Positions 15,745 through 36,249 are shown, numbered from the stretch's first letter. The stretch is 64,000 nucleotides of DNA from Alphaproteobacteria bacterium (GCA_965225945.1 CBDDBZ010000020.1:58368-122367), one strand, 5' to 3'. Made by a program: numbers and translations. The notes: generated by a model from the letters alone, not told the origin.

Positions 15745-16247
15745 CGCTGTCGGCTCCCTCGCGACGTCGTTCGGGCGAGCGCCATTGCAGCAAAATCGGG
15801 CGGGCCGGGCAAGCCGGCGCGCTCGGCCCGGCGCGCTCGGGCCGCGCCATCAGGCCATGGTGATGGCGCTGCCCATGGCCTTGGTGCCTTCGGCGTTGCG
15901 GATTGGCGGCGGCGCCTCGACGCCGCCGCGTGGAGATCGATCATCGAGGCCTCGGGAGTGATGGTGTAGAAAGCATCGATAGGCCGTTATCGCGACCGAA
16001 TTCAAACGCCGTATTCCGTAACGCAGGAGGAACACCCGTGGCCGATCTCGAACTCACCCTCGACGGCGCCGTCGCCACGCTGACCATGAACCGGCCCGAG
16101 GCCAGAAATGCGCTGTCCATGGAGATGCGCCAAGGGATGGACGAGGCCTTCCACCAGGTCGAGTTCGACGCTTCGATCCGCTGCGTCGTGTTGACCGGCG
16201 CGGGCGAACATTTCATGGCCGGCGGCGACGTCAAGAAACTGCACGCC

Positions 16248-22223: not shown

Positions 22224-23135
22224 TCATGCGGCGGGCCTGAGTGACATCGCGGTGTGCCACGCCTGACGAGCTTGAGCGGGGCTCAGGTAGCCGTTCTTCT
22301 CCACGATCCACTGGGCATTGTACTGTTCGACGAACCCGCGGACGGCGTTCCGCAGCTCCGCGATGTTGCGGTAGATGCGGCCATGGATGATCTGTTCCTT
22401 GAGCGTGCGATTGAACCTCTCGGCGACGCCGTTGGTCTGGGGCTGTTCGACGAAGGCGTAGGACGGCTGGATGCCCCAGAACTTGATCTGGTTGGTGAAG
22501 TGGTCCGACAGATACTGGGAGCCGTGATCCATCCGCAAGGCCAGCCCCCGCGCCGCACCGGCGGAGGTCGAGGCATACAGCCTCGCAAGCCCCATGGAGA
22601 TCGGCTGAAGGGCGGCGAAGCGGTCGCCTCGCTTGCACACATGCCAGCCGACGCACTCGGCGTTCCAATGCTCGATGGCGGTGAATATCCAGCCCCAGCC
22701 GTCGTCCACCGTGAACACCCGAACGCCGTCCGTGCCCCACATGAGGTTGGGGGCATGGGTGATGATCTCACCGACATGGGGATTTCCGCCACGGCGGCGG
22801 CAGCGATGGGGCGAGAGCAGGTTGTTCTCGCGCATCACCCGGAGCACCCGCTTGCGGGAAACACGGATGCCACGACAGACCCGAAGCCGAGCCCAGACCT
22901 TGCGGTGTCCCTCGCCCTCCCAGGGGGATGCCTCCAGGTCGGCCTCGATGGCCACCAGCAGAGCCTCGTCCGAGATCGAGGGCTTCGGTCCCCGGCGCTT
23001 TGCTGGTGGGCGCTCAGCGGTGGCCTGCTGCCGGGATTTCATGGCGTAGAACGAGGAACGGGCAAAACCCCAGGCCGCACAGACCCGCTGGAGGCCGTAG
23101 GCCAAACCCGTGCCGGGAGAGGTGGCGGCACTCAT
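22224..23135 (-). CDS. IS3-family transposase OrfB (rve)
   Basis: WGTD, RMDHGSQY, QTNGVAERFNRTLKEQ. Confidence 0.9.
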   Translation of the reverse strand: MSAATSPGTGLAYGLQRVCAAWGFARSSFYAMKSRQQATAERPPAKRRGPKPSISDEALLVAIEADLEASPWEGEGHRKVWARLRVCRGIRVSRKRVLRVMRENNLLSPHRCRRRGGNPHVGEIITHAPNLMWGTDGVRVFTVDDGWGWIFTAIEHWNAECVGWHVCKRGDRFAALQPISMGLARLYASTSAGAARGLALRMDHGSQYLSDHFTNQIKFWGIQPSYAFVEQPQTNGVAERFNRTLKEQIIHGRIYRNIAELRNAVRGFVEQYNAQWIVEKNGYLSPAQARQAWHTAMSLRPAA

Positions 23136-23563
23136 CGCCGCGACCTCCGCCGCCCCAAAGGGCCGGACGTCTCCGTCTTGGCCTCCAGCAGTTCCACCTG
23201 CATGATCAACTCCCCGATCCGCTTCATGGCGATGTCCAGTTCCGCCTTTACCGGATCGCCCTTGCGTTCCTTGAGCGAGGCATCGATCCCGGCGATCGCC
23301 TTCTCACGCCACTGCTCGAGCCGGAAAATCTCCACGCCCAACTGCCGCGACAAAAGTTCCACCGGCTCGCCACGCAAAAGCCGCAGGGCAACCTCACGCT
23401 TGCGCGTCACCGTCCACCGCTGGCCAAGTCCCAGCGGGCCTGCCGGCGAAACCTGGCCCGGGGAAAACGTGGACGAGCCAAGCTCGCCCTCGTTTACCAC
23501 AGGCCCATCAACAGCAACTTTGTTCTCAAAATTGTCGGTCATGTTCCGGTCCTCCTTGGACAC
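23132..23563 (-). CDS. IS3-family OrfA (HTH)
   Basis: RWTVTRKREVALRLLRGEPVELLSRQLGV; ATGA overlap with orfB. Confidence 0.85.
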   Translation of the reverse strand: MSKEDRNMTDNFENKVAVDGPVVNEGELGSSTFSPGQVSPAGPLGLGQRWTVTRKREVALRLLRGEPVELLSRQLGVEIFRLEQWREKAIAGIDASLKERKGDPVKAELDIAMKRIGELIMQVELLEAKTETSGPLGRRRSRR

Positions 23564-24150
23564 TTCGATTAAGCCAATTCTGTGTCCAAGGAAATCGGGT
23601 CCGACTCACCACGATGGCCGGAATGCCTGCGCCGGGGGGGGGGGGGGCGCGAGTGGTGCGGGCGCAGGGAGCGGAGCGACTGAGCCACGGTCGCGTATTG
23701 CACCGGCGCTAGCCGCGCAGCGGCGTGGCATTGCGCGCTATCGCCGTAACGGAGCGTGAGCGGAGTGGAGGACCCCGCAGGGGTTGGCGCAGTGAGAACG
23801 TGTGGGACAATGAGACATCATGACGGGATGATTATTCTCCCACTCCCACGCCTCTCTTCCACCGTAACCGCGGGCTGGGTGCTGGCAATAGGGGGCACAA
23901 TCCGGGTCGCGAGGGTGCCCGCACCGATGGCAATGAGGTCGTCGTTTAAATCAGACAGGTCGGGATGATCATGATTTAGGGATTGCGGCGTTCCGCATAA
24001 CGGCGCCAAATGCGGATTGCGGAGCATTCGCCCAACGCTTTCGGTATGGGATGTATTTCCTGGACTCGAAGAGCACAGCATGAAAAAAGGCCGGTCCCAC
24101 GCCAATCTGGCGGGAACCGGCCCTGGGGTATGCGGGAGAAGAAAACCAGC

Positions 24151-24389
24151 TTAGAAGGGGATCTCGCTGTCATCCACCGTCGTGGCGGTTTCGGCGGCCG
24201 GCGCGGCGTCGCCGTTCGGCTTGTCGAGAAACTGGACCCTGCCGCCGGGGACTAGGAGGATCTCGGTCGAGAACCGGTCGCTGTCCTCGCCGTCCTTGCG
24301 CCACTTGCGGGTCTGCAGCTTGCCCGAGACGTAGACCAGGCGGCCCTTCTTCGCGTGCTTCTCCAGCATCTCCACCAGGCCGTCCTGGA
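24151..24389 (-). pseudogene. ssb: ssb 3' part (split by satellite)
   Basis: KKGRLVYVSGKLQTRKW...STEI...DDSEIPF acidic tail. Confidence 0.9.
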
Positions 24390-24511
24390 CTCGAACTCTC
24401 CAATGAAATCAACGTCTTAGGTCGTCCAACCCCCCCCCCCCCCCCCCCCCCCCAACCGGGGCATTGATTCCAAAAGGGAATTTTCCCGGTTGTCCAACCC
24501 GATTCGCGGCG

Positions 24512-25489
24512 ATGAGCGCCCAGCTTGAGCACCCGCTCGACTCCGTGCCTGAGCCGGTGCGGTCGCACGGTCTGCGGGCCGCGCACGTCGCTCCGCTGGT
24601 CGGCAGGCGGGTCGGGCCGGGGAAGCAATTCTGGGCGAGGCGCGTTCCCGCGCCGCACGCGTGGGCCTATCCGTACATCGCCATGGCCGATGCCGGCGCG
24701 ACCTGGGCAACGCTCACCTACGACTGCGACAACCGCCAAGCGATGGCTTTGGGCCTGAGCGAGCTGCCGTCGTGGAACTGGTTTGCGGAGACGACACGCG
24801 GGGCGCACGTGACCTGGGCGCTGGCCGTTCCGGTCGCGAAGCACGCAGCAGCACGGGCTGCACCAGAGAGATACCTGTCGCACGTGGCCGAATATTATCA
24901 TGCGGCGCTGGGTGCGGACCCAGCGTTCAATGGGCTCGGTAGGAACCCTGCGCATCCGGACGCCAAGGTGCTGTGGGGCGCGCCAAGGCCCTACACCCTC
25001 GATCAATTGGCGAGCATCTTGCCGTTCAACTGGCGGCGCCCGAAGGTGGCGACAACGGGGATTGGAAGGAACAACGACCTGTTCCGCACGGGCCTGCGCT
25101 GGGCCGGCCGGGAGGCGAACGCGGGCCTCGCCGTGTTGCCCGCCCTGCATGCCGTGAACGCGGAGGTCGCGGCGTTGCACGGCAAGCCGCCCCTGCCGGA
25201 CGCAGAGGTCGCCGGCATCGCCCGGTCAATCGAACGTTACCGCGAGAGATGGGCGCGCCAAGGCCACAAGCCGTCATGGTTGGCGAGGCAAGCGGCGCGA
25301 GGGCGCAAGGGTGGACGGCCGCGCTTGTATGAGCCCGGCCGGGAGCCATGGGTGCTGGAGGGCATCAGCCGGGCCAGCTGGTATAGACGGCGGCGTGAGA
25401 CAAAAGCCAATACAGATATTCCCCCCCTCGGGGGGCCTTGCTCTCCCCCTCCGTCTGCTCTACCTGAACCAAGATCGCTGGCGAGCTGA
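24512..25489 (+). CDS. ColE2-type replicase (primase/PriCT-1 + HTH)
   Basis: TYDCD, GAHVTWAL, LGADPAF...NP, GRNNDLF, PLPDAEVAGIARSI, EPWVLEGISRASWYRR. Confidence 0.85.
   Translation: MSAQLEHPLDSVPEPVRSHGLRAAHVAPLVGRRVGPGKQFWARRVPAPHAWAYPYIAMADAGATWATLTYDCDNRQAMALGLSELPSWNWFAETTRGAHVTWALAVPVAKHAAARAAPERYLSHVAEYYHAALGADPAFNGLGRNPAHPDAKVLWGAPRPYTLDQLASILPFNWRRPKVATTGIGRNNDLFRTGLRWAGREANAGLAVLPALHAVNAEVAALHGKPPLPDAEVAGIARSIERYRERWARQGHKPSWLARQAARGRKGGRPRLYEPGREPWVLEGISRASWYRRRRETKANTDIPPLGGPCSPPPSALPEPRSLAS
25396..25436 (+). promoter_or_regulatory. putative ColE2-like replication origin
   Basis: TGAGAC-AAAAGCC-AATA-CAGATA at the 3' end of rep resembles the ColE2 ori consensus as recalled; followed by a C-run/G-run hairpin. 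Confidence 0.6.
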
Positions 25490-25501
25490 AGGACACAGAG
25501 C

Positions 25502-25690
25502 ATGACGGAGCGCAAGGTAATCCTGGAACTCACGCCACGGGAGGCGCGCGCACTCGCGAGCTTGCTCGGTCAACTCCGCGCGGCGTTCGAGGGAATCGAC
25601 CGTGGGGGCTACAAAGGCACGGACCCGCTGTCCGGCTTGCAAAGCCGCCTTGAGGATGCGATCCGCGCTGCGGCGGATGATGACGGCTGA
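25502..25690 (+). CDS. small hypothetical protein
   Basis: 62-aa ORF with AAGGA RBS, co-directional in the satellite. Confidence 0.6.
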   Translation: MTERKVILELTPREARALASLLGQLRAAFEGIDRGGYKGTDPLSGLQSRLEDAIRAAADDDG

Positions 25691-25798
25691 CCCCCCCCCC
25701 TTATGGCACCGCCCAAATCGCCCGTGGGAGGGGCAGGATCGGGGTGGGGAGTCGCGAACTCCATGAAGACACCGGGCCATGAAGGAAGGGATCGAAGA

Positions 25799-26005
25799 AT
25801 GAAAAGAGACTGCGCAACATGCATGTTCTTTGACGGTGACTATCCTGGATTGAAAAGCCTTGAGGGGGTTTGCCGAGCCGTGCCACCGACTGTGGTCCTT
25901 GATGAAAACCAGTGGCAAACGGGTTGGCCAACCGTCTACGTGGGTGAGTGGTGCGGTGCGTGGCAGGCTGCGGATGACAAGCGGCAATCACAATCGGCTA
26001 ATTGA
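25799..26005 (+). CDS. small Cys-rich phage protein
   Basis: CATC...CRAVPP...WP...WCGAW; purine-rich RBS. Confidence 0.65.
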   Translation: MKRDCATCMFFDGDYPGLKSLEGVCRAVPPTVVLDENQWQTGWPTVYVGEWCGAWQAADDKRQSQSAN

Positions 26006-27482
26006 TTACCTGTCCAGCTTAACCGTCTCGCAAGGCCGTCTCGCCGGACAGGCGTTCGCCGTGCTGCCGTGGCAACGGCGGTTTGTGCGCGGCGCCTTCT
26101 CGCCGGGCATCCAGGCGGCGGCCCTGAGCATCGGCCGAGGCAACGGCAAGACCACGTTGCTCGCGGGGATCGCGGCGGCGACCCTGGATGGACCGCTCGC
26201 GGTGCCGCGTGGCGAGACCGTGATCGTGGCTTCAAGCTTCGAGCAAGCGAGAATCGGCTTTGAGCATGTTCTCGCATTCATGGGCGAGAAGCTGGACGAT
26301 CACGCGCGCTGGAAAGTTTGGAATACAGCGCAACAAGCCCGAATCGAGGATCGCAAGACAGGCGCCAGGGTGCGGTGCATCGGCTCCGATCCGCGCCGGG
26401 CGCATGGTCTGGCGCCGGTGCTGGTACTGGCCGACGAACCGGCCCAATGGCCAGAGAGCACGGGGGAGCGGATGGTTGCGGCGCTTCGGACGGCGGCGGG
26501 CAAGCAACCGCACTCGCGCTTTGTGGCGCTCGGCACCCGGCCGGCCGATGCCGAACACTGGTTCTCAAAGTTGTTGGTTGGTGGATGCGACTATGCGCAA
26601 TGCCATGCGGCGCGGGCGAGCGACCCCCCGTTTCAGCGGCGGACCTGGGCGAAGGCGAATCCCTCCCTCGCGCATATGCCGGATCTGGAGTCGGCGATCC
26701 GCACCGAGGCGAAACAAGCCCGCCAGGACCCGGCCTTGCTTGCCAGTTTCGAGGCGTTGCGGCTCAATCTCGGCACCGAGGATGCGGCGGTTTCCACGCT
26801 GCTCGACGCGGGCTTGTGGCGAGCGATCGAAGGCGTTGCCGAGCTGGACGGGCCGGCGGTTTGGGGCGTCGATTTGGGCACCAGCGCGGCACAGTCCGCG
26901 GTGGCCTGCTATCACCCTCAGACGGGCGCGCTGGCCTGTCTGGCGGCATTCCCTGCGGAGCCGACCCTTGCCGAGCGGGGCTTGCGGGATGGCGTCGGCG
27001 GGCTCTATGCCGAGTGCGCGCGGCGCGGCGAGCTGCTCACCCTGGGGCGGCATACCGTCGACGTGACGGCACTGCTACAGGCGGCGCTCGACCGATTCGG
27101 CCGGCCCGCTCGGATCGTCGCCGACCGATGGCGCGAGGCGGATTTGCGCGAGGCCCTGGAATCCGCCGGCGTGCCGCTCGCCGCGCTCGAATTTCGGGGC
27201 ATGGGCTTCCGCGACGGGGCGGAAGACGTGCGCGGCTTCAGGAAGGCGTGCGCCGACCGGCGGGTGACGCCGCAACCGTCGCTCTTGCTCCGGTCGGCGA
27301 TGGCTGAGGCCCGCACGGTCTCCGACCCGAGCGGCAACGCGAAGCTATCGAAGGGCTCGCAAGGCGGACGGCGGGCCCGGGCTCGCGACGATGCGGCGGC
27401 GGCGGCGATCTTAGCGGTTGCGGCTGGCATCCGGAACCGCGCCCCGCCGAAACGCCGGTGGCGATATGCCGGGATGGCGTGA
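25974..27482 (+). CDS. terL: terminase large subunit
   Basis: LPWQ, Walker A GRGNGKT, Walker B VLVLADE, WAKANPSL, nuclease GVDLG. Confidence 0.9.
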   Translation: MTSGNHNRLIDYLSSLTVSQGRLAGQAFAVLPWQRRFVRGAFSPGIQAAALSIGRGNGKTTLLAGIAAATLDGPLAVPRGETVIVASSFEQARIGFEHVLAFMGEKLDDHARWKVWNTAQQARIEDRKTGARVRCIGSDPRRAHGLAPVLVLADEPAQWPESTGERMVAALRTAAGKQPHSRFVALGTRPADAEHWFSKLLVGGCDYAQCHAARASDPPFQRRTWAKANPSLAHMPDLESAIRTEAKQARQDPALLASFEALRLNLGTEDAAVSTLLDAGLWRAIEGVAELDGPAVWGVDLGTSAAQSAVACYHPQTGALACLAAFPAEPTLAERGLRDGVGGLYAECARRGELLTLGRHTVDVTALLQAALDRFGRPARIVADRWREADLREALESAGVPLAALEFRGMGFRDGAEDVRGFRKACADRRVTPQPSLLLRSAMAEARTVSDPSGNAKLSKGSQGGRRARARDDAAAAAILAVAAGIRNRAPPKRRWRYAGMA

Positions 27483-27547
27483 GTCGGCCGCATCCGCGGT
27501 TAGAAGATCGACGCTATAATTGCCACCGGATAGTCTGACATCTCACA

Positions 27548-28042
27548 TTGGCAGGGGAAACAACCGTGAATAATTTATGGACAGCAATCTGCACCGGTGT
27601 GGTTGGAGGTGTAGCAGCCGGCCTTATTTTAGCCTTGTTTTTTTCGCTCCAAAGAAAATGCATAAGGTGGCCGGACCGTAAAGAACAGACCAAGTACCTT
27701 GCGGCGTTTATCGAAGATGCAAGGAAAAAGATACTCGAAGTCTAAAAACTGCGGTTGCCTGATCCACCAATGCCGGCGGTGGATTCGCGCATATTCGAGG
27801 ATATCCGTAGCTCTTATCATAAGAAATTTAGAGTCGAACTAACCTCGATGCTGTCTAATCGTTGCACTCGAATGACCTACGACGAAAAAGAACAAGTGAG
27901 TGAGATTTTCCTTCGGCACCATGAATTATTTCCAGTCTCTCACTTTTCGAGAGCTCAACACGTTGAGAGATTCTCAATGGCCGAGTCGATCACGTGGCTA
28001 GGTCTGAAGCCTACGAAACGTGACTTTCTCGATACCAAATGA
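27548..28042 (+). pseudogene. low-GC cargo gene (N-terminal TM) with in-frame TAA at 27743
   Basis: ORFs 27548-27745 and 27755-28042 share a frame; AT-rich; TATAAT at 27515. Confidence 0.6.
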
Positions 28043-28332
28043 AGGGTTCTCAACATCATAGACGGCTTAGTTACAAGCGCTGGCAATCGACCCGCCACGC
28101 CGTTTTCCGCCGCGACGGCTACCGTTGCCGCGCGTGCGGCCGGGCCGGTCGACTTGAGTGCGATCACATTGTCCCGCTGCATGTCGACGCCGGGCAAAAT
28201 CCCTACGACCCGGACGGTTGCCAGGCGCTTTGCCGACGATGCCATATCGAGAAAACCCGGCAGGAAAACCGCCGCGAGCCGACCCCTGCCGAGTCCGCAT
28301 GGCGCGAGCTGGTAGCGGAAATGCTGGATTAA
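28039..28332 (+). CDS. HNH endonuclease (HK97 gp74-like)
   Basis: CRACG...CDHIVP...QALCRRCHIEKT. Confidence 0.9.
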   Translation: MKGSQHHRRLSYKRWQSTRHAVFRRDGYRCRACGRAGRLECDHIVPLHVDAGQNPYDPDGCQALCRRCHIEKTRQENRREPTPAESAWRELVAEMLD

Positions 28333-28456
28333 TCCTCGATATTGCGCCGCGCCGCGTAATACCGAGCAATATCAGGGGCTTATCTGGGTTTTTCGTTGAC
28401 TTCTCACACTCGACACCCCCAACTAGTACTCGATTTGTTCTTCTCCGGGGGTTCCC

Positions 28457-29743
28457 ATGACCGATGCCCAGCGCCGTCTCCGCGAGCTTCGCGACCGCCA
28501 ATCGAAAGAGCGCGGCCGGATGGCCGAGCTTTCCCGCGTCGATAGCCTGACAGATGAGACTCGCGCCGAACTCGATCAGCTCGAGTCGGGCACCGCGGAT
28601 TTGGAACGGCTGCTCCGTGCGGCGCGAACCGCTGTTGAGACCGAGGAGTCCGAACAGCGCGCGGCCGGCGCTGCGGCGCGGGCGCCGGAGGGCGATGCCG
28701 AGACCCGCGAGCGGGCCGAGCTGCGCGGCAAGGTGAAGCTGACCGGCTACGTCGCGGCGGCGGTCGAACAGCGCGGCGCGGACGGCGCCGAGGCCGAATA
28801 CAACGCGGCGCTCGGCATCGCCGGTAACCGCTTCCCCCTGGAGCTTCTGGCGCCGCCCGAGAAACGCGCGTCGGTCGAGCAGCGCGCGACCACGGACGTT
28901 GACACCCAGACGATGCCGCGCCGCTGGTTGGATCGGCTGTTCGCCGGCACGGCCGCGATGCGGCTTGGCATCAGCATGGAAAGCGTGCCGGTCGGGGTGG
29001 CGAGCTTCCCTGTCACCACGGCGGGCGCCAGCGCGGCCCAGCGCCAACGGTCGAGCGATGCCGCCGCCGATGCCGCCTGGACGGTCGGCGTCACCGAAAT
29101 GAAACCAAAAAGAAACGCCGTCCGGTTGCTGTTCTCGATCGAGGACGCGGCGCGAATTCCGGGACTCGAAAGCGCGTTGACCCGCGATCTTCGAATGGCG
29201 CTGACCGAGGGCGTCGACCGGGCAATTTTCCTTGGCGATGCGGCCGCGACAGGCACGGACGCGGATATCGTCGGGCTAAACACGGCGGCGATCACCGAGG
29301 TTTCAGTCACACAAGCGAACAAGGTTCTTGGGCCCGGCACCCTTGCCGCCTTCACCGGGCTGGTCGATGGCGTTCATGCGAACATGCTGGGCGACCTCAA
29401 CGTGGTCGCGGCGGTCGGCGCATGGCGATTGTGGGAAGACACGATCGTCAACAGCGCCGCCGACAACATGACGCTGGCCGCGTTCTTGCGGATGGCCGGG
29501 TTGTCGTGGGCGGCGCGCGGCGAGATCGAAACCGCAACCGATGACGGCGACTTTGCGGCCTTCGTCGGGCGCGGCATGGGCATCGACGGCGCGGGCGTCT
29601 CAGCGATTTGGCAAGCCGGCGAACTGGTTCGAGATCCGTATTCAGCTGCGGCGAAGGGCGAAGTCGCGCTGACGCTAATATATCTTTGGGATTTCGCTTT
29701 GCCGCGCGCGTCCAATTTCGCCCGGATCGTCTTCGACGCCTGA
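28457..29743 (+). CDS. HK97-like major capsid protein with N-terminal delta domain
   Basis: Coiled-coil N-terminus, DLRMALTEGVDRAIFLG, LVRDPYS...GEV...D...R...F tail. Confidence 0.85.
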   Translation: MTDAQRRLRELRDRQSKERGRMAELSRVDSLTDETRAELDQLESGTADLERLLRAARTAVETEESEQRAAGAAARAPEGDAETRERAELRGKVKLTGYVAAAVEQRGADGAEAEYNAALGIAGNRFPLELLAPPEKRASVEQRATTDVDTQTMPRRWLDRLFAGTAAMRLGISMESVPVGVASFPVTTAGASAAQRQRSSDAAADAAWTVGVTEMKPKRNAVRLLFSIEDAARIPGLESALTRDLRMALTEGVDRAIFLGDAAATGTDADIVGLNTAAITEVSVTQANKVLGPGTLAAFTGLVDGVHANMLGDLNVVAAVGAWRLWEDTIVNSAADNMTLAAFLRMAGLSWAARGEIETATDDGDFAAFVGRGMGIDGAGVSAIWQAGELVRDPYSAAAKGEVALTLIYLWDFALPRASNFARIVFDA

Positions 29744-29842
29744 CGGAATAGGGTGGCGCCGTACCCCCGCCGCCGCCCTCAAGCTGGCCGGGAGCGCCCG
29801 ACCTCCATCGCCCCCGGCCGGCGCCCCCTTCGGAGGCGATCG

Positions 29843-30802
29843 ATGATGGAATTTGAGCGCCGCGTTTCAGGGATCGAGCTTCGAGCCGAGGGCCGGCGGC
29901 TGTCCGGCATCGTCATGAAATACGGCGACGTTTCTCCCTCGCACCGGGAGCGGTTTGAGCCGCGCGCGATTCGGCTGGCCGAATCGGTTCACCTCGACCT
30001 GCATCATGATCCCGAGCGCGCCATCGCCTGGCACCCCGGCGGCGGGCTCACCCTGGCCAACGGCCGCGCCGAGCTGAAAATGACGGCCGTGTTGCCGCCG
30101 ATCCCTGCGGCTAATCGTGCCTTGGACGAGATCCGCGCCGGCCGCGTCGGCGGTCTGTCGGTCGAATTCCGCGCCGTGAAAGAGCGGCGGGACGGCGATA
30201 TTCGGGTGATCGAGGATGCGATCCTGAGCGGCATCGCGATCGTGAAGGCCCCGAGCTACGGCGGCTCGCGAGTCGAGGCGCGGCGGCGGTCGGGCCGGAC
30301 CATGCGGGCGCGCATCCCTGCCGACCGGAGTGTCGAGTGCCGGTGCAGCGGAGCCGAGTGCAAATTCGCGAAGATGGTGAAGGAGGGCATGGAACAGGCG
30401 TTCAATTCGGCATTCCGGCAATTCGAGCGCGAGGTGATCGCCGGTTTCGGGAGCTACGACATGCCCCTTGCCTCGGCATCGTCCGGCACGCTTCGCGGGC
30501 GAATTCTCCTCAACGGCGATGGCGAGGTCGAGATAGACCTGCCGGCCGATAGCGTCGGCGCTGCGACCCTGGCCGCGCATGAAGCCGCCGGCGTGATCGT
30601 GCGGCCCCATATCGACGCGGCGGCGGCCGAGTCGACGGTCGAGGGCGGGACCCGCGTCTATCAGACCATGCCGATTCGCGCCTTCCTCGTTTCGGCGACA
30701 GATGCCCGCGAGGGCTGGCCGGCGCCGGTGCTTACCGCCACGCCCGAAGAGCTTGCGAGCGCCGAGGCGCCCCGAAGCCGGAGGCTCGCGCGGTGGCTGT
30801 AA
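29843..30802 (+). CDS. HK97-family prohead protease with C-terminal extension
   Basis: RLSGIVMKYG, ERFEP, LHHD, GLSVEF, IAIVKAPSY; GGAGG RBS. Confidence 0.85.
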   Translation: MMEFERRVSGIELRAEGRRLSGIVMKYGDVSPSHRERFEPRAIRLAESVHLDLHHDPERAIAWHPGGGLTLANGRAELKMTAVLPPIPAANRALDEIRAGRVGGLSVEFRAVKERRDGDIRVIEDAILSGIAIVKAPSYGGSRVEARRRSGRTMRARIPADRSVECRCSGAECKFAKMVKEGMEQAFNSAFRQFEREVIAGFGSYDMPLASASSGTLRGRILLNGDGEVEIDLPADSVGAATLAAHEAAGVIVRPHIDAAAAESTVEGGTRVYQTMPIRAFLVSATDAREGWPAPVLTATPEELASAEAPRSRRLARWL

Positions 30803-31104
30803 CCCTCACCGCGGCCGAGCTGGCCGAAGCTGTCGGCACCGACTCGGCGACGGCGACGCGGCTGCTGGTCGTGGCGACCGAGCTTGTGAACCGATACGCG
30901 CCGGACGCCCCGGCCGCGATCAGCAATGAAGCCGTGATCCGCACGGCCGGCTGGCTTGCGGAGCAACCGGCCGCGTCGATCACGGGCGAGACCGAAGGCG
31001 ATGTTCGGACGTTCTACGCGCCGACGATGCAATCGGCGCTTCGGCACTCCGGGGCGATGGCGCTTTTGACTTACTGGCGGGTCCGCCGGGCGGGGGCGAT
31101 ATGA
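30793..31104 (+). CDS. putative head-tail connector/adaptor
   Basis: 103 aa helical, APDAP...EAVIR...SGAMALLTYWR; position after protease. Confidence 0.7.
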   Translation: MAVTLTAAELAEAVGTDSATATRLLVVATELVNRYAPDAPAAISNEAVIRTAGWLAEQPAASITGETEGDVRTFYAPTMQSALRHSGAMALLTYWRVRRAGAI

Positions 31105-31559
31105 CGCGGCGGCTTGCCTTGCGGCGTTTCCCGAACGAGGTCGTTCGCCGGCGCCAGGCGCCGGGCGGCTTTAATCAATTTGGCGAATTCGAGCCGGGCC
31201 CGGTTGTGGAAACGATTTTCCCGGCACGGGTTTTGCCGCTGTTGCTTTCGGACTCGGATTTTGTCGGCGGGGTGTCCCTCGTAGAGCGCCTAAAGATTTT
31301 CGTGCCGCGCGGGATCGCGCGCCGCCGGGGCCAAGGTGACGCGCTTGCTTGGCATGGCGCCGCGCTTGCTTGGAACGGCGATCCGCTGCGATGGGGCGGC
31401 GGCGACGGGGCGCTGATCGAGGATGATTCGATTCCGTTCCTGGCCGCGTTCGAGGACCGGCAGGCCGACGTGTTGGTCTATGCGGGGATCGAGTATGTCG
31501 TGGAGGAAAGCCAGGATTGGCCGCGCTACACGCGAGCAATTGCGCTAAGGGAAACTTAA
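31101..31559 (+). CDS. putative head-closure protein
   Basis: NQFGEF, D-V-YAG-EY-V beta pattern; ATGA coupling. Confidence 0.55.
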   Translation: MTRRLALRRFPNEVVRRRQAPGGFNQFGEFEPGPVVETIFPARVLPLLLSDSDFVGGVSLVERLKIFVPRGIARRRGQGDALAWHGAALAWNGDPLRWGGGDGALIEDDSIPFLAAFEDRQADVLVYAGIEYVVEESQDWPRYTRAIALRET

Positions 31560-31562
31560 ATC

Positions 31563-32621
31563 ATGCGTTGGCCATGGCAACGGGAAACCCGCGAGGCGAC
31601 GGGCGGCTATACCGAGATCATATCCCGGTTGGTGGAGGCGCAGGCGGCTGGAACCACCCAGCAAGCGAGCGCCACGGCCGCCACCGAGGCCGTGGCGGGC
31701 CTGCTGTCGAGGTCCTTTGCGGCGGCGATGGTCGAGGGTCCGGGCGACGTCGCCGGGATCGTGACGCCGCGGTGTCTGGCGCAGATCGGCCGCGACTTGG
31801 TTCGCGTCGGCGAATCGCTTCACGTTATCCGATACATGGGCGGGCGCATGATGCTGGTGCCGGCGTCAACATGGTATTTCGAGGGCGGCGCCGACCCGGA
31901 CGCATGGCTTTGCACGGCAACCGCCTACGGGCCTTCCGGCTCGTCGACATGGCGGGTGCCGCAATCGTCGGTTGTGTTCGTCACATGGGGCTCGCCGACC
32001 GCCCGGCCCTATCACGGGCTCTCGCCGTCGAGCTGGGCGGCCGACACAGCACGGCTGAACGCGAACACCGAGAAATCGCTTGCCGACGAAGCGGGCGGGC
32101 CCGTCGCCCAGCTCTTGCCGGTTCCCCAAGACGGCGGCGACGATGGCGACGAGGACCCGCTCGCCATGCTCCGCAAGGATATCCGGGACGCCAAGGGCAA
32201 GGCCCTGTTGGTCGAAACCGTCGCGAGCGGCTGGGGCGAAGGCAAAACCGCCGCGCCGCAGTCCGATTGGCAGCAACGGCGCCTGGGGCCGCAACCGACC
32301 GAGGCGATGGTGAAGCTCGCGGACTCGGCCTTCGCCAGGGTGCTCGCCGCGTGCGGGTGCTCCCCGGCGCTGTTCGACGATAGCGACGGAACGAGCAAAC
32401 GAGAGGCGCTTCGCCAGTGGCACCTCGGCACCGTCCAGCCGCTCGCGCGGCAGCTGGAACATGAACTATCGACGAAATTCGAGGTCCCGGTGACGCTCCG
32501 CTTCGACCTCTACAACGTCGATCTGGCCGGCCGGGCGCAAGCGTTCCAGAAACTCGTTGCCGGCGGCGTGGCCGTGGACCAGGCGTTGGCAACGACCGGG
32601 CTGCTGGTGTTTGACGAGTGA
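31563..32621 (+). CDS. phage portal protein
   Basis: MRWPW N-terminus, DLVRVGE, HGLSP, VLAACGCSPALF, TVQPLARQLEHEL. Confidence 0.85.
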   Translation: MRWPWQRETREATGGYTEIISRLVEAQAAGTTQQASATAATEAVAGLLSRSFAAAMVEGPGDVAGIVTPRCLAQIGRDLVRVGESLHVIRYMGGRMMLVPASTWYFEGGADPDAWLCTATAYGPSGSSTWRVPQSSVVFVTWGSPTARPYHGLSPSSWAADTARLNANTEKSLADEAGGPVAQLLPVPQDGGDDGDEDPLAMLRKDIRDAKGKALLVETVASGWGEGKTAAPQSDWQQRRLGPQPTEAMVKLADSAFARVLAACGCSPALFDDSDGTSKREALRQWHLGTVQPLARQLEHELSTKFEVPVTLRFDLYNVDLAGRAQAFQKLVAGGVAVDQALATTGLLVFDE

Positions 32622-32848
32622 CCAAGTCTGCCCGGACTGCGGCCGGCCGCGCGCCCGCTCTTGATCGAGGAATAGAGTTCCGGCCGGTTTCCCACCCGGT
32701 CCGGCCGGATTAGGGTGCGGCCCGGTTTCCCCCGATTCCGGGCCGCACTCGCGTCCGGCGGCACACGAAGGGGGGGGCTGCATTTTGCGCCCCCCCCCCC
32801 CCTCGCCGGTGTCGGGGTGCCAGGTTGGCACCCTTCCCCTTTTGAACG

Positions 32849-32907
32849 AACCAAGAAAACTTGGTTGACGTATCAATATTTTTGGTTTACCATTCTTTCA
32901 GAACCAA
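32849..32907 (+). promoter_or_regulatory. sigma70-type promoter with operator-like palindrome
   Basis: TTGACG(32865)-17 bp-TACCAT(32888); palindrome AACCAAG-AAAA-CTTGGTT overlapping -35, extra AACCAA half-sites. Confidence 0.65.
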
Positions 32908-32918
32908 CGGAGCGCGAA

Positions 32919-33314
32919 ATGCCCAAGCGGGACGATAGACGACTGGTTTCCGTGCCCATCGAAACCTTCAAGGCGATTCAGCAATTGCAGCGTGAGCTGG
33001 CGGCGGTCACGGGGCAGAGGGTGACTATCGGCGACGTGGTCGCGCGTGGCGCGCAGTGCCTTTGCGATGCGCACGCGGGGCAGGCATGGCTGTCTCCCGC
33101 CGAACAGGAAAAACCTCTACGGGAGCGGGTTCGAACGGCGGTGATGTCGAATCTCATTGCTCTGCGTGAGCTGGTTCCGGGGATCGGCATCGGCGAAATC
33201 GGGTACGACGCGGAACACGATGCCGTGTTGGTGGCCGTCGAGGGCGAAGATGACCCGGTGCCCCTCTATCCCGACTCGCCGACCACTTGGGCGGCGAGGC
33301 GCCGGCTGAACTGA
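32919..33314 (+). CDS. putative RHH-like regulator
   Basis: RLVSVPIETFKAIQQL...TIGDVV ribbon-helix-helix-like N-terminus; GGAG RBS. Confidence 0.55.
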   Translation: MPKRDDRRLVSVPIETFKAIQQLQRELAAVTGQRVTIGDVVARGAQCLCDAHAGQAWLSPAEQEKPLRERVRTAVMSNLIALRELVPGIGIGEIGYDAEHDAVLVAVEGEDDPVPLYPDSPTTWAARRRLN

Positions 33315-33331
33315 GGGATGGGCCGCGGCTG

Positions 33332-33541
33332 ATGGCGAATCAGAAAGCCACCGTCCGACAATCCGAGTTGACGCGCTACCTGAAGGCCATGCGCGACGCG
33401 GGCATCGCGGAGGGCCGGCTTGAGATTACGAAGCCTGACGGGACACGAATCGCAATCACCTCGGGCAAGGCTTCCGAGATCGCCGACGCCAGCGATGACA
33501 TCGACGCGATGATCGAAAAGGTGCCGCATGCGATACCGTAA
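33332..33541 (+). CDS. putative excisionase/RDF-like small protein
   Basis: RQSELTRYLKAMRDAG...LEITKPDG; overlaps integrase start. Confidence 0.6.
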   Translation: MANQKATVRQSELTRYLKAMRDAGIAEGRLEITKPDGTRIAITSGKASEIADASDDIDAMIEKVPHAIP

Positions 33542-34598
33542 GGAATTCCCCGGCGTGACGGTTGTACGGGATCGGCACGGCCGGCTGCGGTACCGGCTGC
33601 GCCGCACGACCGACGGCCGCAAGATTGACGGCTACTTGCCGGGCGTCATTGGATCGACGGAATTCCGCGCGGCATACCATGAGGCGACCGAGGGCGTCCG
33701 GGCCGCGGGCCGGCGGGCACAGCCCGGCACCGTCGGCTATCTGATCGAGGCGTATCTGGCCGGCACCGCATTTCGGAACTTGGCGGATAGGACGCGAGCG
33801 GACAAACGCTGGCGCCAGGACTGGATCAAGGAAGCCATCGGGAGCGCCCGGTACGCTTCCATCCAGCCGCGCCACATCGAGGCGTTGATGTCGAAGAAAG
33901 GCGGGCCGGCCGCGGCGAACCGACTCAAGAAGGACCTCTCTCAGCTGTTCCGATTCGCCGCGAAACGATTCGGCTACCAAGGCCAAAATCCCGCCGCGCT
34001 GGCGGATACGCACAAGGAGAGGTCGGAGGGTTATCACACCTGGACTGACGACGAGATCGAGGTATTCCGGGCCAAGTTTCCGACTGGAACGAAGGCACGG
34101 CTGGCGCTTGAGATTTTCCTAGGGACGGGTGCTGCCCGGCAAGACGCGGCGACGCTCACCCGGGCGAGCATACGCGGCCTTCGCCTCTTCTATCGACGCG
34201 GGAAGACCGGCCAGGAAGTGGACCTGCCAATCGTGGCCGAGTTGGCGAAGGAACTGGCGTATCTGCCGCCGGACCAAATGATGCTGCTGGCGCACGGGGA
34301 GAGAGCGAAGGCCTACAGCGCCTCACCGCTCGGCAACTGGTTCAGGGACAGGTGCGAAGAAGCCGGCTTACCGCACTGTTCGGCGCACGGGCTGCGGAAG
34401 GCCGGCGCCCGGCGCTTGGCTGAGGCCGGTGCGACCGAATGGGAGGTGATGGCCTTCCTCGCCCACCGGACCGCCAAGGAGGCGAGCCGCTATACCGCAG
34501 CGGCGAATAGGTCGATGCTCACGACGAGAGGTATGGCGAGACTCAGCACGAAACCCGAACAAATCTTGTCCAACCTTCCGTCGAGGTTGGACAAATAG
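33528..34598 (+). CDS. int: tyrosine integrase
   Basis: GTGAAR, HGLRK, LAH, RYT catalytic residues; DRHGRLRYR arm-binding N-terminus. Confidence 0.93.
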   Translation: MRYRKEFPGVTVVRDRHGRLRYRLRRTTDGRKIDGYLPGVIGSTEFRAAYHEATEGVRAAGRRAQPGTVGYLIEAYLAGTAFRNLADRTRADKRWRQDWIKEAIGSARYASIQPRHIEALMSKKGGPAAANRLKKDLSQLFRFAAKRFGYQGQNPAALADTHKERSEGYHTWTDDEIEVFRAKFPTGTKARLALEIFLGTGAARQDAATLTRASIRGLRLFYRRGKTGQEVDLPIVAELAKELAYLPPDQMMLLAHGERAKAYSASPLGNWFRDRCEEAGLPHCSAHGLRKAGARRLAEAGATEWEVMAFLAHRTAKEASRYTAAANRSMLTTRGMARLSTKPEQILSNLPSRLDK

Positions 34599-34646
34599 GG
34601 AGATTAAGTCATTGATATACAACGACGAAAAACAACGGGTGACTGT

Positions 34647-34831
34647 CCGTCCTGGAAGGTGACGATGCGGTGCCATTCGGTGCGGTCCACCTTATCGCCC
34701 GAGTTTTTGTCGAGGTAGCTTTCGTCGGTCGCGATCGAGACGTTGGCGACACGGCCGCCGTTGGTGAGATGGCTGATGGTGGCGTCGGCGCCGAGGCGTC
34801 CGATCAGCTGGGCGTTATTCAATCCGAACAT
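34647..34831 (-). pseudogene. ssb: ssb 5' part
   Basis: NNAQLIGRLGAD...SIATDE...RTEWHRIVTFQDG; AGGAG RBS. Confidence 0.9.
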
Positions 34832-34938
34832 GATCAATCTCCTATGATCCGGGTTATGACATCGGGTTAGCGAACGGGAACCGGTCTCTCTCGATTCCTT
34901 CCCCCTTCACACTTCTCTAAGCCCCCCTCTTCCTCTAT

Positions 34939-35130
34939 TCAGCCGTCCGCGCCGGTATATGTCCGGGAGCCGAGAACCTCGCGGATCGCGTGGGCCGGCA
35001 ATCCGGCCGCGGCCAGCAGCGCGCCGGCATCGGGAAGCGGTGCGGTGAAGCCGGGATCGGCATCGTTTGTGCTATCGGGATTGAAAAGGGTGTCGTTGGA
35101 CTCGGTCGAGGTATGTCTGGAATCGAACAT
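34939..35130 (-). CDS. small hypothetical protein
   Basis: GGAGGT RBS, ATG 35130. Confidence 0.5.
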   Translation of the reverse strand: MFDSRHTSTESNDTLFNPDSTNDADPGFTAPLPDAGALLAAAGLPAHAIREVLGSRTYTGADG

Positions 35131-35291
35131 CTGGCACCTCCGGTTGATGGGGTTGAGACACCGCCCGGAGGGGACTCTCTTTTCCCTTGGGCGCGTCGCC
35201 CTTCTCTTTGCCTTCCTCAAACTCTCTTGCACGTTGGTCGAGGCAGGCCGGAGAGTTCGGGGGCATTGCCCGGCAATCGCCGCGCGGTTCA

Positions 35292-35606
35292 TCAAAGGGC
35301 CGCGTCGTTGGCGTCCATGATGGCGATGATGACGTCGTCGAGGCTGCCCCTGGCGCTCATCAAGGTGTGTTCCAGATGGAGAAGCTGGTGGCGGAGCCCG
35401 GCGCGGTCGTCGCAGGACGGGTTGTTGGGCAGACGCATGATGGCGTTCCGCAACTCGGCGAAGCGCTCCGCCAGATCCTTCATGTGAGCTGCAGCTTCGC
35501 GTGCGCCGGTCCGGGCTTCCTGCAGGAACCCGCCGGGATCGGGACGGGTGCCGGCCATGGTCTCGAAATCGCCGGTCGTGGAGTGTGGTGTGAGGGTGTC
35601 AAACAT
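35292..35606 (-). CDS. small helical hypothetical protein
   Basis: GGAGG RBS, ATG 35606. Confidence 0.55.
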   Translation of the reverse strand: MFDTLTPHSTTGDFETMAGTRPDPGGFLQEARTGAREAAAHMKDLAERFAELRNAIMRLPNNPSCDDRAGLRHQLLHLEHTLMSARGSLDDVIIAIMDANDAAL

Positions 35607-35814
35607 CGGGTTCCTCCGTGGATTGCAAGACAGAATGGCGGCGATGCCGGAATTGCCTCCCGCGCACCCCCCGAACCGCCCCTGCCGTGCTGCCCTCGAC
35701 CTCCATGTGCCGCAACGTGCGGGTGGGAGGGCCTCACTCAAAACGTTGCCGTGGCCTGCTCCTGGCCCATCATGCCGGGTGGCAAGTTACCGGGTGTAAA
35801 CCGGCCTGCCCGGT

Positions 35815-36072
35815 TCAATGGGTGGTTTCATCGCGGGCGGCGGACATGGACCGGCCGGCGATGGCGGACCAGGCATCCCGGTCGAGTCCGAGCTTGGCGT
35901 TCAGGCGATCGCAGATCCTCAGAGCATCGTCGAGTGTGAGCCCAACCAACGCTGTGGGGACGTAGCCCGGCATCGAATCGAACACGATTCGGATCTGCTG
36001 TGGCATGTTGTCGAAGTCATAAGCTGGACAAAACGCGTAGACGGGATCGTCGGGCAGCGTATGAGATGTCAT
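35815..36072 (-). CDS. small hypothetical protein
   Basis: GGAAG RBS; ICDRLNAKLGL motif. Confidence 0.55.
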   Translation of the reverse strand: MTSHTLPDDPVYAFCPAYDFDNMPQQIRIVFDSMPGYVPTALVGLTLDDALRICDRLNAKLGLDRDAWSAIAGRSMSAARDETTH

Positions 36073-36249
36073 GACGATATCTTCCATATGGCGGATTGGA
36101 CTGTTCGTGCCTGTGAGCGGCGCAAAGGCGCAATTTCCCGGATGTGGGTGTCTTCGTGGAGTGAAGAATCCTACAACCTTTTGCGCGTAGCGGGCGGTAG
36201 CAAGGTTTGGCACGCCCCCGCGCCGGATACCGGACGGGAGCGTGCGGGT

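Follow-up and report, generated by a model that had tools for sequence, protein, structure and literature searches.

According to two reports, cf-PICIs make their own capsids and depend on phages only for tails (bioRxiv 10.1101/2022.09.08.507074; 10.1101/2025.02.11.637232). They are described as elements of about 10–15 kb that carry an integrase and are without tail and lysis genes; in those of Proteobacteria the capsid gene is followed by the protease gene, both before the portal, and the proteobacterial clade is delimited by packaging-module proteins 50–90% similar to those of EcCIEDL933 (bioRxiv 10.1101/2022.09.08.507074). The cfPICI model of SatelliteFinder calls for at least 9 of 11 components within 10 genes and for no forbidden tail or holin component, and the main text of the paper nowhere mentions Alphaproteobacteria. 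We compare with these systems an element found in a 64,000-nucleotide stretch of DNA from an alphaproteobacterium (the window). This element is probably an integrative, capsid-forming phage satellite that would borrow its tails and work in the manner of cf-PICIs.

The initial annotation had described a bounded 10.3 kb element with 10-bp direct repeats. This was borne out by an insertion of 10,267 bp that splits an ssb gene and has 10-bp direct repeats at its ends:

24151–24387, − strand: 3' part of the interrupted ssb (target) gene; Pfam SSB 58-98, E 1.4e-7 (24387..24154)
24380–24389, unstranded: attL core, left 10-bp repeat copy, read directly; an empty-site joint falls here
24431–24456, unstranded: run of 26 C just 5' of rep, read directly; perhaps an assembly-prone homopolymer, as contigs seem cut at 24420-24465
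34647–34656, unstranded: attR core, right 10-bp repeat copy, read directly; empty-site joint
34647–34837, − strand: 5' part of the interrupted ssb gene; Pfam SSB 1-56, E 1.4e-11

Both copies of the repeat, CCGTCCTGGA, fall within a single ssb gene, which is read from the − strand. The empty site is present in two of the four public runs compared (X1 and X5). One joint, 24379->34647, occurs in a single contig of run X1, with a shorter side of 42 letters and 10 letters that fit either side, and another, 24382->34650, occurs in contigs of both X1 and X5; each skips 10,267 bases and rejoins the ssb halves exactly at the repeat. The borders, being matched by these contigs, are therefore supported by more than a 10-mer that could recur by chance. 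Among the 15 of 61 joints listed, there was no empty-site joint from runs X2 or X4 and no circular junction of the element, and terminal overlap was found in none of 32 loci (metagenome, viral and genome-collection contigs or stretches cut from them). The copy in the window sits in ssb with only 10 bp of identity, and its relatives adjoin tRNA genes; possibly it went into a secondary site. Insertion sequences abound in the flanks: those at 22188-23608 and 52770-54190 form an IS3-type pair, and those at 1203-2432 and 16240-17470 a DDE pair. The surroundings also carry genes of plasmid/ICE type (ssb, a Strawberry-notch-type helicase and DUF3991-Toprim).

Between the repeats the following features were assigned:

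24464–25489, + strand: Rep, ColE2-type replication initiator/primase (PF03090, PriCT_1, PDB 3vw4_A)
25502–25690, + strand: small ORF, 62 aa; no family match, GC3 0.75
25703–26005, + strand: small Cys-rich ORF, 100 aa, overlapping the terL start; weak codon signal, GC3 0.56
25860–27482, + strand: TerL, large terminase (phrog_9, Terminase_6N, TerL_nuclease); true start probably near 25974
27548–28042, + strand: low-GC stretch (GC 0.53) with two small ORFs (65 and 95 aa, GC3 0.47-0.48); cargo or non-coding
28039–28332, + strand: HNH endonuclease, packaging type (PF01844, 4.3e-8; phrog_589, 1.2e-19)
28457–29743, + strand: predicted major capsid protein, HK97 fold, 428 aa (AlphaFold model, Foldseek)
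29753–30802, + strand: S78 prohead serine protease (PF04586, 7.1e-12, residues 46-185)
30793–31104, + strand: candidate head-tail adaptor (gp6-like connector); Atlas lead, conserved in the family
31101–31559, + strand: probable head-closure/stopper neck protein (AlphaFold and Foldseek, Atlas)
31563–32621, + strand: portal (PF04860 below threshold, phrog_12, relatives)
32715–33314, + strand: ORF, no family match; probable start 32919 (131 aa), with an AT-rich promoter-like stretch 5'
33287–33541, + strand: small ORF, 84 aa, adjoining the integrase; candidate excisionase (neighbour of a related integrase)
33528–34598, + strand: tyrosine integrase (PF00589, 1.4e-9; phrog_1, 1.3e-30)

Family matches, structural models and the Atlas lead agree across the element with the gene order given in the initial annotation, and its description of intact core genes on one strand also holds: all credible and strong ORFs are on the + strand, and in the lone − strand ORF (25460-25987) the codon signal is weak. 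Head and packaging genes are present, and, as that annotation had stated for a tail-less element encoding a head, searches of Pfam, PHROGs, NCBIfam and PADLOC matched nothing in the element to a family of tail, lysis or TerS proteins. Partition or mobilisation genes likewise gave no match, nor did AlpA or HTH. The product of 32715–33314 may be a regulator. The 84-aa protein has only a weak match to phrog_9554, a family of no assigned function, but a gene 60% identical to its own adjoins the related integrase in L006/L071. The ORFs of 65 and 95 aa between terL and the HNH gene had no family or defence match; this junction varies among relatives, and its length differs in L003, L004 and L005.

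The TerL protein matches phrog_9 at 1.4e-56 and is 28% identical to HK97 TerL (E 7e-32), which places it, by sequence, nearest to the HK97-type terminases that act with an HNH protein. HNH-type cos packaging normally requires TerS. None was recognised here with Pfam, PHROGs or NCBIfam, and relatives differ in the genes 5' of terL; the Cys-rich ORF at 25703–26005 occupies the usual TerS position and has no TerS homology. The capsid sequence had no Pfam (PF05065 included), PHROG or NCBIfam match, and some relatives' capsids narrowly pass PF05065. Its AlphaFold model (pLDDT 90.3, pTM 0.78) consists of an HK97 fold, with A and P domains and a spine helix, and an N-terminal helical, delta/scaffold-like domain of about 120 aa. 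Foldseek gave 348 PDB matches at E<=0.001, the best of them phage capsids (2e-12), with probability 1.00 to the HK97, T5, RcGTA and other capsids, and a structure search of BFVD gave 273 matches, the best again capsid proteins. The 428-aa protein is thus predicted to have the HK97 fold of major capsid proteins. Neither capsid nor portal had a tblastn match in 50,697 phage records. The protease extends about 165 aa beyond its S78 domain at the C terminus, and in relatives it is either short (about 158 aa) or long (about 315-349 aa). The portal scores 9.3e-9 (35.3 bits) against PF04860, below the cut-off of 39.1, and 1e-6 against phrog_12, and relatives hold full-length copies 58-92% identical to it. 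For the product of 30793–31104, assignment as a head-tail adaptor is a lead from language-model (Atlas) features: these give 0.96 with clusters of head-tail connectors, and in one such cluster 63% of the members have PF05135. The next product is probably a head-closure/stopper neck protein: its AlphaFold model is of moderate confidence (pLDDT 78.1), its three PDB matches at E<=0.001 are all phage connector/neck chains, just below these in score come the SaPI1 neck, the RcGTA virion and the connector of SPP1, and the Atlas score is 0.91-0.92.

The Rep protein matches PF03090 (7.4e-11, 42.7 bits, cut-off 26) and PriCT_1 (2e-4, 21.3 bits, cut-off 21.1), and its residues 202-310 match PDB 3vw4_A ('Rep', E 3.2e-7), which we take to be the solved DNA-binding domain of ColE2-P9 Rep. 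Sequence matches thus cover both the primase domain and the C-terminal origin-binding domain of a ColE2-type plasmid Rep, although the known one is on a small colicin plasmid and this one is in an integrating, capsid-encoding element. Nearly all of its 142 homologues have PF03090, and many sit on contigs of about 8.7-12 kb. One capsid cluster and one Rep cluster have two contig sizes in common (11,721 and 437,767 bases), suggesting that the linkage of capsid and Rep recurs.

Seventeen elements were examined: that of the window, L003 from the same genome, L004, L005, L008, L069, L070, and ten in a genome of the same genus (G427). All 17 share the order terL-HNH-capsid-protease-adaptor-(stopper)-portal, so that the 16 further elements, from six other genome regions or genomes, uphold the view of a separate alphaproteobacterial family with the portal at the end of its head module. 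The TerL, capsid and portal frames are full-length in 16 of the 17, the portal of L074 being cut short. A tRNA gene lies at one end of 12 elements, and the ten with both ends marked (integrase or repeat at one, tRNA gene or repeat at the other) measure 9.4-12.3 kb. No tail gene was found in any of the 17, and since the largest non-core ORF is that of a 431-aa AAA_25 protein, there is no room for a tail module. At the DNA level the window element is a mosaic, with the rep block 79% identical to L078, terL 82% to L079, the HNH-to-portal block 81-82% to L072/L073 and int 68% to L006; identity to L078 in the Rep region is limited to the coding part, 24505-25451. The initial annotation had made a ColE2 replicase characteristic of the family. 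The assignment of Rep itself stands, but ColE2-type Rep occurs in three of the 17 elements, the others having HTH_36 or AAA_25 replication genes or, as in L005, none evident, and it is one exchangeable module and not a family-wide trait. AlpA-like genes are present in two relatives (L073 and L077). In a viral-contig collection there was no close relative, the 10 matches being only 25-29% identical.

Like the cf-PICI EcCIEDL933 of E. coli, the window element is small and integrative, encodes a capsid, S78 protease, portal, connectors (here with moderate support, from the stopper fold and the Atlas lead), HNH and TerL, lacks tail and lysis genes, and has its capsid gene directly 5' of the protease gene and ahead of the portal. 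The earlier claim of a gene order foreign to cf-PICIs was therefore overstated. The module is nevertheless rearranged: the order in EcCIEDL933 is capsid-protease-portal-closure-connector-HNH-terS-terL, whereas in the window element terL and HNH lie 5' of the capsid and the connectors 5' of the portal. TerS and the PICI-type left arm (AlpA/divergent regulators, pri-rep) went unrecognised, and a ColE2-type Rep, which does not match the DUF927 protein of EcCIEDL933, takes the place of the DUF927 primase-helicase. The two also differ in size (10.3 against 15.4 kb) and host class. Identity is 22% for TerL and 25% for the protease; capsid, portal, connectors, integrase and Rep have no BLASTP match at E<0.1, the HNH match spans 35 residues only (E 0.005), and the family capsid profile reaches E 0.03 against the EcCIEDL933 capsid. 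Because identity is at most 25%, with most proteins unmatched, the module rearranged and neither TerS nor AlpA found, the element is, judged by sequence, no close member of the described cf-PICI clade and does not nest within it. Cf-PICI-like elements of Beta- and Gammaproteobacteria (e.g., L012, L015 and L053) are also small and integrase-bearing, with capsid then protease, and their capsids align to that of the window at 25-30% identity; however, they have an EcCIEDL933-like portal and protease (32-48%), an HK97-like TerS, a TerL 65% identical to that of HK97, and a capsid with 204 phage matches. Phage HK97 shares the HK97-fold capsid with an N-terminal domain, S78 protease, adaptor, closure protein and HNH-assisted terminase type, but is ordered terS-terL-portal-protease-capsid-adaptor-closure, followed by tail genes. 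RcGTA has small HK97-type heads and an alphaproteobacterial host, and matches the capsid (6tb9, 1.1e-9) and stopper (6tba, 2.3e-2) in structure. Gene transfer agents carry tail genes of their own, are not known to have an integrase or replicon, and package DNA of the host at random. The window element, unlike these, has an integrase, Rep and defined repeat ends and no tail genes that were found, and assignment as a gene transfer agent was rejected.

Other origins can be weighed against these data. The IS-rich flanks and the degraded copies in the family (L006, L009, L074 and contig C3 of G191, which has a stop codon) would fit a prophage remnant that had lost its mobility and, by deletion, its tail and lysis genes. 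Such an origin is very improbable, as 16 of the 17 elements keep one compact layout with full-length core frames and ten are marked at both ends within a narrow span of sizes; with the layout so repeated, independent deletions are an unlikely source. Moreover, no tailed relative was found, the empty-site contigs represent a clean insertion, and mosaic blocks of 79-82% identity point to ongoing exchange. It is somewhat less improbable, though still unlikely, that the element is mainly a plasmid-like replicon able to integrate and akin to phage-plasmids, one that persists after excision as an episome of ColE2 type and uses its capsid only occasionally or moves by other means. The domains of its Rep, the many Rep homologues on contigs of about 8.7-12 kb, the recurring capsid-Rep linkage and the plasmid/ICE-type neighbourhood all speak for this. 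Against it are the restriction of this Rep to three of 17 members, L005 with no replication gene at all, the missing partition and mobilisation genes, the 32 loci without a closed circular contig, and a capsid search of 72,556 plasmid records that gave one weak match (27% identity).

No helper phage was identified in the host assembly or in four further host genomes. In the host assembly, which is 96.6% complete, there was no match to PF05065 Phage_capsid, PF10145 tape-measure, PF04984 sheath or PF13550 Phage-tail_3, and the one other portal in it is a broken remnant (contig C4); PF13550 was missing in three, and PF10145 in all, of the four further genomes. The result for the host assembly would suit a self-sufficient former of tail-less particles, or a GTA-like device, that needs no helper, as would the release of tail-less capsids reported for cf-PICIs (10.1101/2025.02.11.637232). 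The reading is very unlikely all the same. Since it brings its own integrase and replicon and its ends are defined, the element would package itself and not random host DNA; it has no lysis gene for release, and it encodes adaptor- and stopper-like neck proteins. The known role of such proteins is to join tails, and to our knowledge there is no tail-less HK97-type virus of bacteria. Points against the satellite reading are the lack of a helper, of TerS, of a circular junction and of close relatives among viral contigs, as well as the tentative adaptor, the moderate confidence of the stopper model and the site in ssb with its 10 bp of identity.

As a satellite, the element would build small HK97-type heads and package its own DNA of roughly 10 kb, while another phage would supply tails and probably lysis too. 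Excision of the element at the 10-bp core would be carried out by the tyrosine integrase, possibly helped by the 84-aa protein encoded next to it; the borders and an empty site are observed. The ColE2-type Rep, to judge from its family, would prime replication of the circle at its own origin. The capsid protein, with its scaffold-like N-terminal domain, would assemble on the portal and be matured by the S78 protease, genes for all of which were identified; TerL and the HNH endonuclease would cut and package unit-length DNA as in HK97-type cos phages, and the adaptor and stopper would close the head and present a docking face for the ready-made tails of the helper. We infer both the dependence on a helper and the piracy of its tails.

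The family is a large, diverse and so far unnamed group of recombining alphaproteobacterial elements of roughly 9-12 kb, in which the head and packaging module is constant and the integrase and replication modules are exchanged. There is a small chance that it is instead an independent, ancient lineage of plasmid-like mini-heads with no dedicated helper, whose tail-less, DNA-filled heads dock on any compatible free tails. If so, the tails of gene transfer agents or of unrelated phages would be usable in a dense community such as the sponge microbiome, and up to ten copies per genome would recombine freely. Under the preferred satellite reading, the family most likely spreads by tails borrowed from other phages.

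The 10.3-kb element is bounded by the decamer CCGTCCTGGA, present at 24380-24389 and 34647-34656, and both copies, read directly, lie within one gene on the minus strand. The right-hand flank of this gene (34837..34647) matches positions 1-56 of the Pfam SSB family (E 1.4e-11), and the left-hand flank (24387..24154) matches positions 58-98 (E 1.4e-7) and terminates in a typical acidic SSB tail. Because both repeats fall in one gene and the flanking pieces are two parts of the same protein, ssb is interrupted by the element; nothing restores its 3' end. Contigs from four public sequencing runs (X1, X2, X4 and X5) were mapped over 23300-35800. One X1 contig joins 24379 to 34647, with a shorter side of 42 letters and 10 letters that fit either side, and contigs of X1 and X5 join 24382 to 34650, with 10,267 bases left out in every case. 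Taken singly, each joint is modest evidence, given the likeness threshold of 90 and the short sides. The joints coincide exactly with the independently predicted repeat; ssb therefore also occurs uninterrupted in nature, and 10,267 bp were cleanly inserted, with the borders drawn in the initial annotation. Among the 15 of 61 joints listed, neither X2 nor X4 provided an empty-site joint and no circular junction appeared. Further joints (e.g., 23608 to 25660) are short-sided and begin at the end of an insertion sequence.

A check of 32 loci, some of them excerpts of longer contigs, showed no terminal overlap. When the computed sequence of the excised junction was searched against the host genome and all loci, no second attachment site emerged and the matches were homopolymers only. 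In L071, a locus of another genome (G006), a tRNA-Met gene at 7489-7565 adjoins an integrase 66% identical to that of the window, and such a tRNA-Met gene neighbours the closest integrase relatives. The window copy, in contrast, lies in ssb with only a 10-bp shared core and may thus be a secondary-site insertion. The listed sequencing runs that carry the region include no RNA datasets; a sponge metagenome label is found on 4 of 20 run rows, all from one study, among them X4, which covers the element in pieces; the remaining rows bear coded organism labels.

The surroundings contain two inverted pairs of transposable elements, one of IS3 type (22188-23608 and 52770-54190, 100% identical over 1,421 bp) and one of DDE_Tnp_1 type (1203-2432 and 16240-17470, 99.8% identical over 1,231 bp). 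Between the IS3 copies lie ~29 kb with the satellite and ssb, genes for a Strawberry-notch-type helicase (37085-39679) and a DUF3991-Toprim protein (39793-40683), IS21-type genes, and a further tyrosine recombinase gene (43697-44656); the region looks plasmid- or ICE-derived.

Every ORF of the element whose third codon positions give a strong GC signal lies on the plus strand. The features with assigned positions or family matches are as follows.

24464-25489, + strand: Rep, PF03090 'Replicase family' (7.4e-11) and PriCT_1 (2e-4, at the cut-off)
25860-27482, + strand: TerL, phrog_9 (1.4e-56)
27548-28042: low-GC stretch (GC3 only 0.47-0.48) with no family match, either cargo or non-coding
28039-28332, + strand: HNH protein, PF01844 and phrog_589
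28457-29743, + strand: capsid protein of 428 aa, fold predicted by AlphaFold and Foldseek
29753-30802, + strand: protease, PF04586 over residues 46-185, with a C-terminal extension of ~165 residues
31563-32621, + strand: portal protein, PF04860 (9.3e-9; 35.3 bits, below the 39.1 cut-off) and phrog_12 (1e-6)
Start probably at 32919, + strand: 199-aa ORF behind an AT-rich promoter-like stretch, no family match
Following ORF, + strand: 84 aa, with a 60% identical partner that adjoins a related integrase in another genome
33528-34598, + strand: tyrosine recombinase (integrase), phrog_1 (1.3e-30)

Residues 202-310 of Rep match PDB chain 3vw4_A, a molecule named 'Rep' (E 3.2e-7) and presumably the origin-binding domain of ColE2-P9 Rep. 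The best phage matches of TerL are HK97-type terminases at 28% identity; homology begins near residue 40, so the true start is probably 25974. The labels 'regulator' and 'excisionase' for the 199-aa and 84-aa ORFs are guesses. Nowhere in the element was a match to a tail, lysis or small-terminase family obtained, in line with the initial annotation, and the small genes upstream of terL, where no TerS was recognised, are unconserved among relatives. The small ORFs gave no PADLOC match to defence genes, and NCBIfam returned nothing for 10 element proteins. Upstream of rep, in the non-coding part of the element, is a run of 26 C (24431-24456), and G8 followed by C13 lies between the portal gene and the next gene (about 32775-32805). 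Comparable C runs occur elsewhere in the genome (e.g., contig C33) and public-run contigs break at the 26-C run; these homopolymers could be real or assembly artefacts.

The capsid protein sequence matched nothing in Pfam, PHROGs or NCBIfam, nor in the PDB by sequence. Its AlphaFold model, built on a 50-sequence alignment (pLDDT 90.3, pTM 0.78), comprises an N-terminal domain of ~120 residues that is helical and, after it, a body of mixed alpha/beta structure. Foldseek returned 348 PDB matches at E<=0.001 with phage capsids on top (DT57C at 2e-12, Dinoroseobacter phage R4C, T5, HK97 and RcGTA), and 273 matches in BFVD, the top ones being annotated major capsid proteins at only 9-18% identity. 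On the strength of this model, the product is a capsid protein of the HK97 fold that carries a delta/scaffold-like domain. The model of a 152-aa protein (pLDDT 78.1) had three PDB matches at E<=0.001, all of them phage connector or neck chains, and the scores just below belonged to the SaPI1 neck, the E217 neck, the SPP1 gp6/gp15/gp16 connector and the RcGTA virion; with moderate confidence, it is interpreted as a head-closure (stopper) protein. A 103-aa protein resembles head-tail connector clusters in language-model features (0.96), with PF05135 in 63% of the members of one cluster, a lead towards a connector or adaptor role. Shallow family alignments of these two proteins gave nothing significant in hhalign against the closure and connector proteins of HK97 and EcCIEDL933 (best probability 7.5). 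Three homologues of the 152-aa protein (P0417-P0419) are 254-255 aa long, the combined length of adaptor and stopper; these, and a 257-aa adaptor-like ORF in a second element of the host genome, are possibly adaptor-stopper fusions or miscalled starts.

Seventeen elements were examined: that of the window, L003 (contig C34 of the host genome), L004, L005, L008, L069, L070, and ten in G427, an 8-Mb genome of the same genus (L072-L080, L076 holding a tandem pair). The order terL-HNH-capsid-protease-adaptor-(stopper)-portal, with the portal last in the module as initially annotated, is kept in 17/17. The TerL, capsid and portal frames are full-length in 16 of the 17, the L074 portal being cut to 136 aa, and one TerL exceeds the end of its locus. 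A tRNA gene lies at one end of 12 elements, and those with both ends marked span 9.4-12.3 kb. The biggest non-core ORF encodes a 431-aa AAA_25 protein, so a tape-measure-sized gene or a tail module cannot fit; tail-bearing homologues, which would have made the element a deleted prophage, are thus not represented among the 17. Some members carry three to five extra small genes after the portal, one of them weakly Mu gp37-like (3.9e-5, just under the cut-off). L003, at about 26600-37240 of its contig (locus 4594-15236), reads int, a 382-aa HTH_36-like gene, terL, HNH, capsid (69% identical), a short protease, the 257-aa adaptor-like ORF, portal and three small genes, and terminates at a tRNA-Lys gene. 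In L008, from a Rhodobacter MAG, an AAA_33 kinase-like ATPase gene (11188-11703) lies between capsid and protease, and a 128-aa gene resembling an extra neck protein follows the stopper position. Degraded copies of the family were seen in L006, in L009 and on contig C3 of genome G191, the last with a stop codon.

Around this conserved core the remaining modules are exchanged. A ColE2-type Rep, which the initial annotation had taken to define the family, is present in 3/17 elements, namely the window, L078 (76%) and L075 (42%), and is an exchangeable module. HTH_36 proteins are found in L003, L004 and L073 and an AAA_25 ATPase in L070, L005 has no evident replication gene, and the integrases are diverse. 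At the DNA level the window element is a patchwork: its rep block is nearest to L078 (79%), its terL block to L079 and L004 (82% and 80%), its HNH-to-portal block of 4.3-4.5 kb to L072 and L073 (81-82%), and its int block shares 68% with L006 and L071 and 67% with L069.

Among 8,000 candidates scored, 1,340 capsid homologues were detected at E<=0.001; the best 120 of these are 73-100% identical, and just one of the 120 is named, as 'hypothetical protein'. In a search of all cluster representatives, 2,099 clusters passed E<=0.001, of which 293 also passed E<=1e-30. Distribution across species-representative genomes is patchy, with the capsid in 4/401 of a class sample at E<=1e-20 and in 3/33 of the order at E<=1e-10, the host included in both. 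None of the ten capsid genes of G427 contains stops, and ten copies is an unusual number of satellites for one genome. With the single capsid protein as query, viral contigs and JGI metagenome contigs yielded mostly distant relatives, the only close ones being L041/L042 (77%) and L043 (37%), and a plasmid collection gave one weak match. Rep has 142 homologues, often on contigs of 8.7-12 kb; contig sizes of 11,721 and 437,767 bases are common to one capsid cluster and one Rep cluster, a hint that the pairing recurs elsewhere.

The prototype capsid-forming PICI (cf-PICI), EcCIEDL933, was taken from the E. coli EDL933 chromosome for comparison. Its order is int, HTH, a DUF927 protein, ssb, capsid, protease, portal, closure, connector, HNH, TerS and TerL, with further genes between HTH and the DUF927 protein, between the latter and ssb, and before the capsid, and passages of the source report give the same order for proteobacterial cf-PICIs (10.1101/2022.09.08.507074). 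The unusual placement of capsid and then protease ahead of the portal is common to both, whereas in our element terL and HNH lie upstream and the connectors precede the portal. The layout is therefore a rearranged cf-PICI layout and not a wholly different one, a correction to the initial annotation. In BLASTP, similarity to EcCIEDL933 was limited to TerL (21.6% identity, E 9e-7), the protease (24.7%, E 7e-6) and a 35-residue match in HNH (E 0.005); the capsid, portal, connectors, integrase and Rep had no match. With the family capsid profile, the EcCIEDL933 capsid scored E 0.03 and the HK97 capsid E 1. Elements of Beta- and Gammaproteobacteria recovered in the capsid search (L011-L023 and L044-L058) are classical cf-PICI-like: portal and protease resemble those of EcCIEDL933 (32-48% identity), TerS is HK97-like, and TerL shares 65% identity with that of HK97. 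Their capsid has 204 phage matches, whereas tblastn at E<=0.001 against 50,697 phage records yielded none for the capsid and portal of the window element. A special kinship with these elements, drawn from capsid matches of 25-29%, was dropped because of these 204 phage matches and because the E-values were relative to a small candidate set. The element is cf-PICI-like in its presumed working, yet it departs from cf-PICIs in packaging-module similarity, TerS, AlpA and pri-rep type.

The head set comprises shell, maturation protease, portal, a packaging ATPase-nuclease with its HNH partner, and two neck proteins. As these genes cover the needs of a head only, and are combined with the element's own integration and replication genes, defined ends and no room for tail or lysis genes, we regard the element as most likely a capsid-forming satellite, self-packaging and reliant on borrowed tails. 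On this point the initial interpretation largely stands, and its underlying observation holds. Gene identities, borders, an empty site and a family both conserved and mobile are established by the data. Following induction the element would be replicated by Rep, its DNA would be packaged by a cos-type mechanism, the two neck proteins would seal the portal and accept a tail, and the heads would dock tails made elsewhere. For cf-PICIs, this mode of transfer has been demonstrated experimentally; they are reported to release capsids lacking tails, which then join up with tails from various species (10.1101/2025.02.11.637232). The weak points of the satellite reading are that no helper was identified, no TerS was recognised and no circular form appeared among the joints listed. 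In the host assembly, a helper search found no match to PF05065, PF10145, PF04984 or PF13550. The sole other portal gene there, in a remnant cluster at 3500-6685 of contig C4, is split by a stop (PF04860, 3e-71) and preceded by 443-aa and 192-aa ORFs, with nothing phage-like beyond, and may belong to a decayed prophage or a GTA-like cluster. G427 carries a single ordinary capsid gene, with a Phage-tail_3 gene some 19 kb away.

To date, capsid-forming satellites are on record from Enterobacteria, from other Gammaproteobacteria and from Firmicutes, with at least three reported origins. A full-text search found no description of them in Alphaproteobacteria, and the word Alphaproteobacteria is absent from the main text of the SatelliteFinder paper, though supplementary lists of that paper and of the cf-PICI paper may include some. 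The alphaproteobacterial family is interpreted as a further, divergent lineage of capsid-forming satellites, for which an independent origin is plausible. Neither capsid nor portal has a Pfam match at the gathering cut-off or an NCBIfam match, the PHROG match of the portal is weak and the sources say 'hypothetical'; because both proteins escape current annotation, present satellite finders may overlook the family. With ten copies in a single genome, some of them in tandem, and with replication, terminase, head and integrase modules swapped in blocks, the family offers a system for studying satellite evolution, and it indicates that a plasmid-type ColE2 Rep can act as a satellite replicon, if replication is driven by Rep as proposed. 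It would carry the capsid-forming lifestyle into Alphaproteobacteria with a separately arranged head module, and provides a concrete handle for finding tailed helpers in these hosts.
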